A stretch of 6,611 nucleotides of DNA from a virus. Of this stretch, positions 910 to 2,523 are shown one piece after another. Every line of letters starts with the position of its first letter. Positions within the stretch are counted from its first letter, which is position 1. Below the pieces are notes generated by a model that was not told where the DNA came from, searched no databases, and saw only the letters and a program-made list of their open reading frames with translations. Both the position numbers and the translations under genes were made by a program. Location: positions 1 through 6,611 of the IMG/VR virus record IMGVR_UViG_3300029736_000184; one strand, given 5' to 3'.

Positions 910-1722
910 TCATATCCGTACACGGCCAGGACTGAACAGAGAGCGGTATATCACAAAAAGGAATGCTACCCCGGCAATGAAGATAATCAGCCAGTAATAT
1001 GTTCCCTCACTCTGGAGCATCGGATATTCCGCAAGGTCACTGTATACGATGTAATTATTCGCCTGGAGCCGAAAAGAACCTTCCGTGCCGGCTGACCAAG
1101 TATAATACCGGGAATCATAGGCAATATATTGCGCATCCTCCGCCGTGAACGTAGTACCATTACAAATCATATCCTTTGCATAAACCAAACGGTACGCATA
1201 CTGTCCGTGGCGGAACAGCACATAATGGACGTTCCCCAGCTTCGGAAGCACATCCGACATATAAGTTATCACTGTGGTGGAAATAGACGAATCATAAGGC
1301 GTATACGAGCTATAAACCACAGGAGAATTCACAGTCAGAATATTCGCTACCGTCTGGGCCTTTTTTGTGCGCCCAGCATTAGAAGCACTAGCAACGCGAG
1401 CATTAGAACCAGAAGCAACAGGAATATCTTCCATGTCATCATCGTCCTCAATATCAGCCATATCATCCTCATCTTCCTCATCCTCCTCCGCCAGCTCAGG
1501 ATACAAGATTTCCATTATCTGCTGATACTGGTCAAAGTCCATATCCTCATCAGGAACACTGGAAAGCCACCCATTTACATCATTCGTCTCAGCCTGAGGA
1601 TATCCCTCAGGAGCCATAAAATCCTCCTCAGTGAGCGTATACTCATCCGCAAAAGACCGAAAACAGTATAAAGCACACAGAACCAAACAAAGTAATACAC
1701 AATACATCCTCCTCCACATCAT
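910..1722 (-). CDS. 270-aa secreted and membrane-anchored protein. N-terminal Cys-rich signal peptide (MMWRRMYCVLLCLVLCALYCFRSFA). Long polyacidic low-complexity tract (EEDEEDEDDMADIEDDDDMED). Ala/Ser/Asn-rich linker, beta-rich Tyr/Thr/Ser-rich domain, and C-terminal TM helix (YYWLIIFIAGVAFLFVIYRSLF). Candidate second pIII-like minor virion or assembly protein.
   Basis: ORF track plus domain reading. ATG 1722..1720 overlaps the TGA (1721..1719) of the upstream 43-aa ORF as ATGA, indicating translational coupling. GAGGGGA motif upstream. Confidence 0.6.
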   Translation of the reverse strand: MMWRRMYCVLLCLVLCALYCFRSFADEYTLTEEDFMAPEGYPQAETNDVNGWLSSVPDEDMDFDQYQQIMEILYPELAEEDEEDEDDMADIEDDDDMEDIPVASGSNARVASASNAGRTKKAQTVANILTVNSPVVYSSYTPYDSSISTTVITYMSDVLPKLGNVHYVLFRHGQYAYRLVYAKDMICNGTTFTAEDAQYIAYDSRYYTWSAGTEGSFRLQANNYIVYSDLAEYPMLQSEGTYYWLIIFIAGVAFLFVIYRSLFSPGRVRI

Positions 1723-1850
1723 AAGCGTACATCCCCTCTAAAGGCCATCCCAAGGAACAATGAAACAACCCGCTGGCCAAGAGCAAACACAATTGCATAG
1801 GGCATTGCTTCCCGAATCACATCCGCAAATAATCCAATTGCAACCTGCAT
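1719..1850 (-). CDS. Small 43-aa hydrophobic membrane protein (MQVAIGLFADVIREAMPYAIVFALGQRVVSLFLGMAFRGDVRL). It is shorter than every ORF-track entry, the shortest being 61 aa. It starts 4 nt after the ATPase stop and is stop-start coupled (ATGA) to the 270-aa ORF. Candidate pXI/pVII/pIX-like small membrane component, or the separated TM segment of a split gene I.
   Basis: Manual translation of rc(1719..1850). ATG 1850..1848 is preceded by GGGGGTGAT SD-like sequence. One predicted TM helix. Overlaps both neighbours in an operon-typical way. Confidence 0.55.
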   Translation of the reverse strand: MQVAIGLFADVIREAMPYAIVFALGQRVVSLFLGMAFRGDVRL

Positions 1851-1854
1851 CCAA

Positions 1855-2523
1855 TCACCCCCAATCCTGGCGATACCGATTCATCACCGCATATGTATCA
1901 TAACTATCATAAAGCGCAGGAGAGTGGAACCAGAAAAACCGCTTGATACTGTTGGCAACGACCTCGCCGTCAACCTCCCGGGCATTTTTCGCGTCAATCA
2001 ACGCATTGACTTGAATGCACCGCAGCACCGTGCGACAGGCGACCGCATAGCGAAACTGCTCCCGGAAAGGTTTCGCAATTCGGCTGAATACCTGGGATGT
2101 GCCGACAATATGTTTCCGCTGTTTACGCTGCTGGGAGACGACCGTAAAAATATTGCTGTCCATCTTTTTCGATTCCAGGGAATTGAATTCCAGATGTATC
2201 TCATCAATCAGATAAATCACACCAGCATAACCATTATTAATATCTGTGAAGCAATGAACACCGTCCCAGGGATATACTTCAATGCCATCCGGGAGGCGCA
2301 AATCCATATTGCTGCACACCTTTACCTGGGGATACAGTTCACAAAGTTTCTGTACATACTGGACAGCACTGATTGTTTTACCGGCTCCCTGCATCCCACA
2401 AAAAACGATAATCCCATCCGGGTCAAAATACTCAGGATGCTGTTTACGGAATTCCTTGTTATACTTCCAGACCTTAAACACATTCCCAATGTCCAGGGAA
2501 CCCATATACCATTTAAAAGACAT
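1855..2523 (-). CDS. 222-aa P-loop NTPase resembling the N-terminal cytoplasmic ATPase domain of the inovirus assembly protein pI / Zot family. Walker A GMQGAGKT, Walker B VIYLIDEIH, and an NMDLRLP segment reminiscent of Ff pI NLDLRLQ. It lacks the TM and periplasmic C-terminal part found in Ff pI and Zot. The track ORF extends to 2685 but that N-terminal extension overlaps the coat gene and terminator and is not credible.
   Basis: ATG 2523..2521 is preceded by GGAGGT (rc 2530..2535) with 5-nt spacing. Motifs read directly. Sits immediately downstream of the coat gene terminator. Confidence 0.8.
   Translation of the reverse strand: MSFKWYMGSLDIGNVFKVWKYNKEFRKQHPEYFDPDGIIVFCGMQGAGKTISAVQYVQKLCELYPQVKVCSNMDLRLPDGIEVYPWDGVHCFTDINNGYAGVIYLIDEIHLEFNSLESKKMDSNIFTVVSQQRKQRKHIVGTSQVFSRIAKPFREQFRYAVACRTVLRCIQVNALIDAKNAREVDGEVVANSIKRFFWFHSPALYDSYDTYAVMNRYRQDWG

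Follow-up and report, generated by a model that had tools for sequence, protein, structure and literature searches.

The assembly of filamentous phages is commonly understood from the Ff phages (M13/f1/fd), for which the textbook model combines a pI/pXI ring with the pIV secretin. Past its ATPase domain, Ff pI continues for about 138 more residues, which comprise a linker, the start of pXI at M241, a transmembrane (TM) helix and, in the periplasm, a domain in contact with the pIV secretin. To our knowledge, the assembly of filamentous phages in cells without an outer membrane, and their exit from such cells, are essentially unstudied. For inoviruses in general, one or two TM domains, either N- or C-terminal, were demanded of a genuine pI, and pI proteins with an N-terminal TM, found in about 30% of inovirus species, were called "atypical"; a pI wholly without TM segments was not discussed (Roux et al., 2019). 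Both the textbook model and this definition presume an ATPase that is anchored in the membrane. In this study, we analysed the 6,611 nucleotides of the IMG/VR virus record IMGVR_UViG_3300029736_000184 (positions 1 to 6,611; hereafter, the window), which contain most of a filamentous prophage. Its Zot/pI-like assembly ATPase (222 aa, encoded at 1855..2523 on the minus strand) consists of the P-loop domain only and has no TM segment. It is followed by a conserved gene for a hydrophobic single-helix protein of 43 residues (1719..1850, minus strand; the small open reading frame, or small ORF), which belongs to a coat-like family.

The inoviruses of Enterocloster have been described before (Burckhardt et al., 2023, Microbiome 11:65), and a near-identical phage is thus already known. 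The inovirus of E. citroniae WAL-17108 (6,989 nt) is essentially the same element as that of the window, with the same 222-aa Zot protein, the same coat protein and a 43-aa ORF that differs in 2 of 43 residues. In Table S5 of that study, a gene trio like the one in the window is listed as genes 21-23: HHpred relates the Zot protein with 99.8% to ORF301 of Pf3, with no TM noted, and the coat orthologue to G8P of IKe, while the 43-aa ORF is given as "Unknown Function" with a spurious match to cytochrome oxidase subunit IV only. The main text and the supplementary files pass over the missing Zot TM and the nature of the 43-aa ORF without comment. Release of the E. citroniae phage, in the form of DNase-protected DNA, has been shown and responds to osmolality (Burckhardt et al., 2023). 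Therefore, the anchorless layout is functional. The same study also described an E. bolteae inovirus, from the same host genus, whose pI does carry an N-terminal TM.

The product of 1855..2523 is a Zot/pI-like inovirus assembly ATPase within the FtsK-HerA superfamily of P-loop proteins, as its motifs, its profile homology to pI, its Zot-like fold and the inovirus genome context (Rep, coat, a pVI-like protein of 90 aa and a pIII-like protein) all fit this assignment. The gene begins with an ATG at 2523-2521, comprises 222 codons and ends with a TGA at 1857-1855; a Shine-Dalgarno (SD) sequence, GGAGG (2529..2533, minus strand), is located 5 nt 5' of the ATG, and the N-termini of homologues line up with this start. 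All coordinates in the initial annotation of the window proved correct. The protein contains a Walker A (GMQGAGKT, residues 43-50) and a Walker B motif (VIYLIDEIH), together with the motifs NMDLRLP and YDSYDTY, and residues G43, G46, G48, K49, D107 and E108 are invariant in 24 homologues. The Pfam family PF05707 (Zot) scored 20.0 bits at a gathering score of 20.3 (E 5.2e-4) and aligned to residues 100-164 alone; a precomputed PF05707 match exists for some of the homologues. Among the PHROGs, the protein matched Zot-like toxin (7.5e-5) and M13 protein I (0.003). It shares with Ff pI the P-loop assembly ATPase domain, both Walker motifs and an (N/D)xYDT motif, and the same membrane-associated role in filament assembly would be expected of it.

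The profile of the 24 homologues was aligned by hhalign to residues 6-210 of M13 pI (E 5.9e-5, probability 65%). At the end of this alignment, NLYNAYDTKQAF of pI (residues 199-210) is paired with ALYDSYDTYAVM of the window (residues 203-214), which bears out the resemblance of the YDSYDTY tail to Ff pI that had been noticed in the initial annotation. The ATPase stops 8 residues past the position aligned to pI residue 210, and nothing in it corresponds to what follows in M13 pI, namely the linker, the start of pXI, the TM helix (at about 254-270) and the periplasmic domain. With a 19-residue Kyte-Doolittle window and a threshold of 1.6, no TM segment was found in the ATPase (highest value 1.12). 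It had therefore been recognised correctly that the protein ends right after the conserved cytoplasmic domain. The AlphaFold model of the ATPase (pLDDT 78, pTM 0.77) has as its best match in the PDB, by Foldseek, the N-terminal domain of Neisseria meningitidis Zot (2R2A, 191 residues; E 3.7e-6, TM-score 0.46-0.52), with an identity of only 13-14%; by sequence, the ATPase profile did not retrieve Zot among solved structures. The best match among viral models (BFVD) is an Inoviridae Zot of 206 aa (E 8.8e-14, TM-score 0.62-0.67). Compared with the copy in the prophage of E. aldenensis (L069, 6001-6669), 60 of 666 nucleotides and 3 of 222 residues differ (dN/dS about 0.015), which indicates very strong purifying selection together with substantial silent divergence between close prophages.

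The initial annotation had regarded gene I of this phage as split, with a truncated ATPase. A comparison across the family does not support this. A search of 5.8 billion proteins returned 2,853 homologues, of which the best 120 measure 216-261 aa, and 1,145 matches were obtained when 1.84 billion cluster representatives were searched exhaustively with HMMER. The TM census was made on the 103 full-length proteins among the best 150 of these 1,145 matches: 79 are without a TM, in 24 the TM is N-terminal, and a C-terminal TM was found in none of the 103. In a neighbour-joining tree, the clade of the window forms a uniform block of 63 TM-less representatives; outside this clade, the TM state changes at least nine times, part of which may be noise from gene calling. 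The closest TM-bearing relatives (L004, positions 1-810; L053-L059, L061-L063, L065 and L067; a subset of P0193-P0270) share 31-38% identity with the window ATPase and possess an N-terminal anchor of 35-70 residues. These anchors follow a recurring pattern of an amphipathic segment, (S/L/V)-P, a hydrophobic stretch of ~25 residues and K-G-(Y/x)-K. Because the anchors of the relatives sit at the N-terminus, nothing has been lost from the C-terminus of gene I. Gene I is not split: the 222-aa ATPase is a full-length member of a large TM-less Zot/pI-like clade from filamentous prophages of gut Clostridia, and the anchorless layout is typical of this clade rather than the mark of a broken gene.

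The C-terminal TM helix and periplasmic domain that characterise an Ff-type pI are absent from the window ATPase, and the TM domain asked of a genuine pI (Roux et al., 2019) is missing from it and from the 79 representatives alike. Within a family of 1,145 representative clusters, the anchorless ATPase is thus the majority state (79/103) among the representatives surveyed. A short Zot should accordingly not be taken for a pseudogene, and TM-less pI-like ATPases should not be rejected by inovirus detectors. With the "atypical" pI ATPases the window shares the ATPase domain, a small genome and a similar gene content; these have a covalent N-terminal anchor, whereas the window clade has none. This raises the question of what holds the motor at the membrane, for which the 43-aa protein is the first candidate. 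We also observed a predicted N-terminal helix in the ATPase, GNVFKVWKYNKEFRKQ (residues 13-28, window about 2440-2487), which is rich in aromatic and basic residues and aligns with the juxtamembrane segment after the TM anchor in homologues with an N-terminal TM. By itself, this helix might attach peripherally to the membrane surface.

The 43-aa ORF is a real, separately initiated and conserved gene under strong purifying selection. Its ATG lies at 1850, in the +1 frame and 4 nt (TTGG) past the ATPase stop, and its 43 codons end with a TGA at 1721-1719; the translation is MQVAIGLFADVIREAMPYAIVFALGQRVVSLFLGMAFRGDVRL. The SD-like sequence GGGGGTGA (1855..1862, minus strand), one mismatch from GGAGGTGA, overlaps the last ATPase codons and the stop, and the small-ORF stop shares an ATGA (1719..1722, minus strand) with the ATG of the next gene (1722-1720). 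An SD of its own, the 4-nt distance and the ATGA coupling were thus read as in the initial annotation, and SD sequences are enriched across the family: a match of at least 5 nt occurs in 68% of 87 distinct upstream regions, compared with 5% at random positions. The gene had been missed in the first ORF track solely because its length is below the usual cut-offs; it was called by NCBI, by JGI and in a published table. Pairwise dN/dS values range from 0.02 to 0.18, and relative to L070 there are 24 nucleotide changes, of which 3 alter an amino acid (dN/dS 0.028). The family alignment is nearly gapless, with P17, F22 and F37 near-invariant. The protein has few tryptic sites and would give EAMPYAIVFALGQR-type peptides.

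A hidden Markov model (HMM) built from three examples of the small ORF picks up the family in most related loci. It was found at 93 of 123 non-redundant ATPase loci, downstream on the same strand in 88 and directly upstream in 5; the 30 loci where it went undetected are mostly distant clades or truncated contigs. In 72 of the 88 downstream loci the small ORF starts between -41 and +20 nt from the ATPase stop. A large protein database contains 295 clusters of the family, and the 120 of them that were listed measure 43-55 aa, except for one of 70 aa; some carry the label "hypothetical protein" from NCBI or JGI. Among these 120 clusters there was neither a Pfam domain nor a natural fusion to the ATPase or to anything else. 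Likewise, the small ORF itself matched no family in Pfam or PHROGs, even at permissive E-values. The 43-aa family is therefore unannotated, and its inclusion could improve gene calling in inoviruses.

Whether the product has a single TM, as originally noted, is less clear-cut. The best 19-residue hydropathy window (residues 19-37) reaches 1.82, yet it includes Q26 and R27, and hydrophobicity in the family consensus peaks at residues 9-27 instead. From its composition, a single TM is plausible but not clean. In the AlphaFold prediction, residues 2-37 form a single helix of about 36 residues without interruption (pLDDT 88). In this model the helix exceeds a plain TM anchor in length and is built like those of inovirus coat proteins. 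The protein is acidic in its N-terminal part and basic at its C-terminal end, and its hydropathy is comparable to that of pVII and pVIII.

The best profile match of the small ORF was the major coat protein of the phage itself. The coat precursor (96 aa; 2576..2866, minus strand) is encoded directly 5' of the ATPase gene and was recognised through PHROG matches to a virion structural protein (5.6e-8) and to major coat protein (0.021). In hhalign, the small-ORF profile aligned to the C-terminal 46 aa of the coat protein with a score of 22.6 (E 1.9e-4, probability 48%), over 46 ungapped columns and with a shared C-terminal end. None of 200 column shuffles attained this score (mean 8.6, sd 1.9, maximum 15.7), and the reversed coat alignment gave 8.9. 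Control TM segments, namely both ends of the pVI-like protein, the C-terminus of the 270-aa protein encoded next to the small ORF, and the N-terminal-TM segments of the related ATPases, scored 11-14 with the small ORF, and the coat profile scored 13.3 or less with the same controls. A score of 18.8 was obtained with the 48-aa coat proteins of N-terminal-TM genomes, which begin at the mature sequence and are homologous to the window coat (hhalign 96.7%, E 4e-10). As far as profiles can tell, the coat similarity of the small ORF appears specific, yet below the level that would prove homology. A long helix, acidic in its N-terminal part and basic in its C-terminal part, is common to both proteins, but the basic tail of the small ORF is much weaker (net about +2, compared with +6 in the coat protein). 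Moreover, a canonical coat gene is already present in the phage, and, being located downstream of a hairpin, the small ORF presumably has a low level of expression.

This hairpin (2545..2566, minus strand), identified by a consensus scan, is located in the 52-nt gap between the coat and ATPase genes and resembles a terminator, with a 9-bp stem that includes 7 G-C pairs, followed by a run of seven T (T7). In Ff phages, a terminator after gene VIII separates highly from weakly expressed genes, and by analogy the hairpin may separate strongly from weakly expressed genes in the window. The small ORF also fits the traits of the minor Ff proteins pVII and pIX. Like these (32-33 aa), it falls into a size class of 30-50 aa, lacks a signal peptide, has one hydrophobic helix and a basic C-terminal end, and its gene belongs to a structural block that adjoins the major coat gene. 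It differs from them in the position of the gene, which follows the coat gene instead of preceding it, and in its invariant mid-helix proline.

Because of the profile match to the coat protein, the long helix and the location in a block that extends from coat to adsorption genes, we favour a coat-like protein without a signal that is a minor component of the virion or initiates assembly, with Ff pVII/pIX as its functional analogues, over a detached anchor of pI. This is our tentative first choice and falls a little short of an even chance. Potentially, the 43-aa protein would be made at a low level from the operon 3' of the coat-gene terminator, which would also supply the ATPase and the pIII-like and pVI-like proteins. 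It would insert into the cytoplasmic membrane with its N-terminus outside, and might help to start or to cap the filament at the membrane site of ATPase-driven assembly.

Several observations weigh against a coat-like minor protein. The likeness to the coat exists at the level of profiles only, at the 48% probability given above and with about 4% identity between the first sequences shown, and could reflect a common hydrophobic architecture instead of descent. No sequence similarity to Ff pVII or pIX was detected (hhalign probabilities 0.37% and 0.24%), and the invariant P17 in the middle of the helix is unusual for helices that pack in a filament. The order of an amphipathic segment, a proline, a hydrophobic stretch and a basic end can by eye also be seen in the N-terminal anchors of the relatives. 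Finally, all genomes in which the small-ORF family was detected have TM-less ATPases, with 0 of 13 N-terminal-TM loci positive, and this occurrence, as well as the tight spacing in 72 of the 88 downstream loci, would also fit a partner of the ATPase.

The best surviving alternative takes up these last points. As proposed in similar form in the initial annotation, the 43-aa protein might be a tether that acts in trans: it would stay in the membrane without entering the virion, bind the anchorless ATPase and replace the N-terminal TM in the manner of pXI. The window ATPase has no TM, whereas one or two such domains were demanded of a genuine pI (Roux et al., 2019), and the small ORF accompanies TM-less ATPases only, with stop and start often overlapping, whereas the relatives at 31-38% identity that have an N-terminal TM lack an adjacent family member. 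The segments shared by eye with the N-terminal anchors include the basic K-G motif, and the predicted orientation with the N-terminus out and the C-terminus in would place the basic C-terminus beside helix 13-28 of the ATPase. Statistics did not support a common origin. With hhalign, the N-terminal-TM segments scored 11.5 (probability 1%), practically the same as the reversed control (11.6), M13 pXI scored 8.9 (probability 0.17%), and the small-ORF HMM found N-terminal-TM ATPases at E > 3 only. Homology of the small ORF to the anchors of the relatives is therefore not demonstrable, and we rejected it as an explanation of the resemblance seen by eye; a detached anchor of the ATPase agrees poorly with a best match to the coat. 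It also speaks against a tether that no fused form occurs among the 120 listed clusters and that genomes with N-terminal-TM ATPases carry extra small TM ORFs as well.

The position of the genes is likewise of limited help to a tether. Across the relatives, the order of coat, small ORF, pIII-like and pVI-like genes is kept, and the slot of the ATPase gene varies. In the window it separates the coat gene from the small ORF. In L081, L083, L091, L093, L124 and L005/L068 (the last with a 52-aa ORF that scores 21.5 with the small-ORF family profile), it comes between the small ORF and the pIII-like gene. The Ff-like position, behind the pVI-like gene, is that of L044-L052, L006, L060, L066 and those N-terminal-TM genomes that were examined. 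Adjacency of small ORF and ATPase gene in both orders would be expected if the ATPase gene merely lay in one or the other internal slot of a three-gene structural block of coat, small ORF and adsorption protein, and thus argues only weakly for a specific partnership. There are also TM-less clades in which no small ORF adjoins the ATPase gene (L044-L052, L060, L066, L006). In L044-L052, a hydrophobic, proline-containing ORF of 49-53 aa lies directly 3' of the coat gene and far from the ATPase (e.g., L047 619-780; L050 3250-3399), with a weak similarity to the small-ORF family (hhalign 17.1). We also down-weighted the complementarity of TM-less ATPase and small ORF, which is phylogenetically confounded and rests largely on one large clade. 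Altogether, we regard a tether that is not part of the virion as rather doubtful.

A coat-like minor protein and a tether are not mutually exclusive, and a cap protein could also dock the ATPase. In such a two-part motor, a soluble, anchorless pI-type ATPase would be docked by a 43-aa coat-like protein that also nucleates the filament, combining the roles of pXI and of pVII/pIX; we hold this combination to be unlikely as well. Another role as a small membrane protein that has nothing to do with either virion or ATPase, for example in superinfection exclusion, in the regulation of assembly or of host envelope stress, or as a toxin- or holin-like protein, seems quite improbable. Small hydrophobic accessory genes are common in prophages. 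The lack of a Pfam or PHROG family and the label "Unknown Function" (Burckhardt et al., 2023) would suit such a role, but the small ORF is present in 93 of 123 loci, including the 4.4-kb genome L002, and always within the morphogenesis block, which speaks for a core function. A sequencing frameshift (the alternative named in the initial annotation), a pseudogenised long pI or a programmed +1 frameshift has next to no chance of being correct and is refuted for practical purposes. In principle, both ORFs could be fused by a shift within the last 8 ATPase codons (GGG TGA), as the small ORF is in the +1 frame and this frame has no stop from 1880 onwards. However, independent assemblies that are 9-25% apart in nucleotides retain the same stop and a separate ORF, the short length is common to the 2,853 homologues, the distance between the two genes varies (-41 to +242 nt), all three phases occur and no slippery site is conserved, five loci have the small ORF upstream of the ATPase, and the continuation of the ATPase frame past its stop is a Cys-rich, non-hydrophobic peptide.

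The proposal of a host without an outer membrane is supported. The same element is present in the chromosome of Enterocloster aldenensis, with 99% identity of the ATPase, and in Lacrimispora (95%). Since almost all of the 67 genomic relatives belong to the Clostridia, the host has a single membrane. A Pfam search of the ten main ORFs of the window gave no match to a secretin. Phages of this kind are common among Clostridia from the guts of humans, pigs and rodents, and secretion is known for one of them. The GenBank relatives comprise "bajarodino viruses" (uncultured, from rodent faeces) and porcine "Inovirus sp.", with circular genomes of 4.2-8.8 kb. They are related at the protein level only; a nucleotide search with the whole window gave no match among GenBank phages.

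All genes of the window are encoded on the minus strand except for one. Their order on the minus strand is pIII-like protein, pVI-like protein, Rep, a 148-aa ORF, a 77-aa ORF, coat, hairpin, ATPase, small ORF and 270-aa protein, with the divergent gene located between the 148-aa and 77-aa ORFs. Rep is a rolling-circle replication protein (PF23343, 1.5e-13). The divergent gene (3498-3704, plus strand) encodes a ribbon-helix-helix protein of 68 aa (Arc/CopG-like; PF07878, 8.8e-8) and is oriented away from the structural genes; the protein is probably the prophage repressor. The gene that follows the small ORF (910..1722, minus strand) encodes the 270-aa protein, which has a hydrophobic N-terminus, an acidic tract and a further hydrophobic segment at the C-terminal end; in related genomes (L002, L003, L069), the same slot is taken by homologues of 166-270 aa. 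It is probably a virion or adsorption accessory protein. Its acidic tract is of low complexity and very acidic (EEDEEDEDDMADIEDDDDMED). Positions 1-909 of the window contain only short or doubtful ORFs (e.g., a 98-aa ORF at 500-796, minus strand) and no tRNA, and probably include the prophage end and the attachment site. At the opposite end, the pIII-like protein (5616-6611, minus strand) is cut by the window edge, which leaves the C-terminal 331 of roughly 472 residues. Compared with the E. aldenensis copy, its C-terminal half is nearly identical and its N-terminal part strongly diverged (64% identity overall), a mosaic that is typical of receptor-binding proteins.

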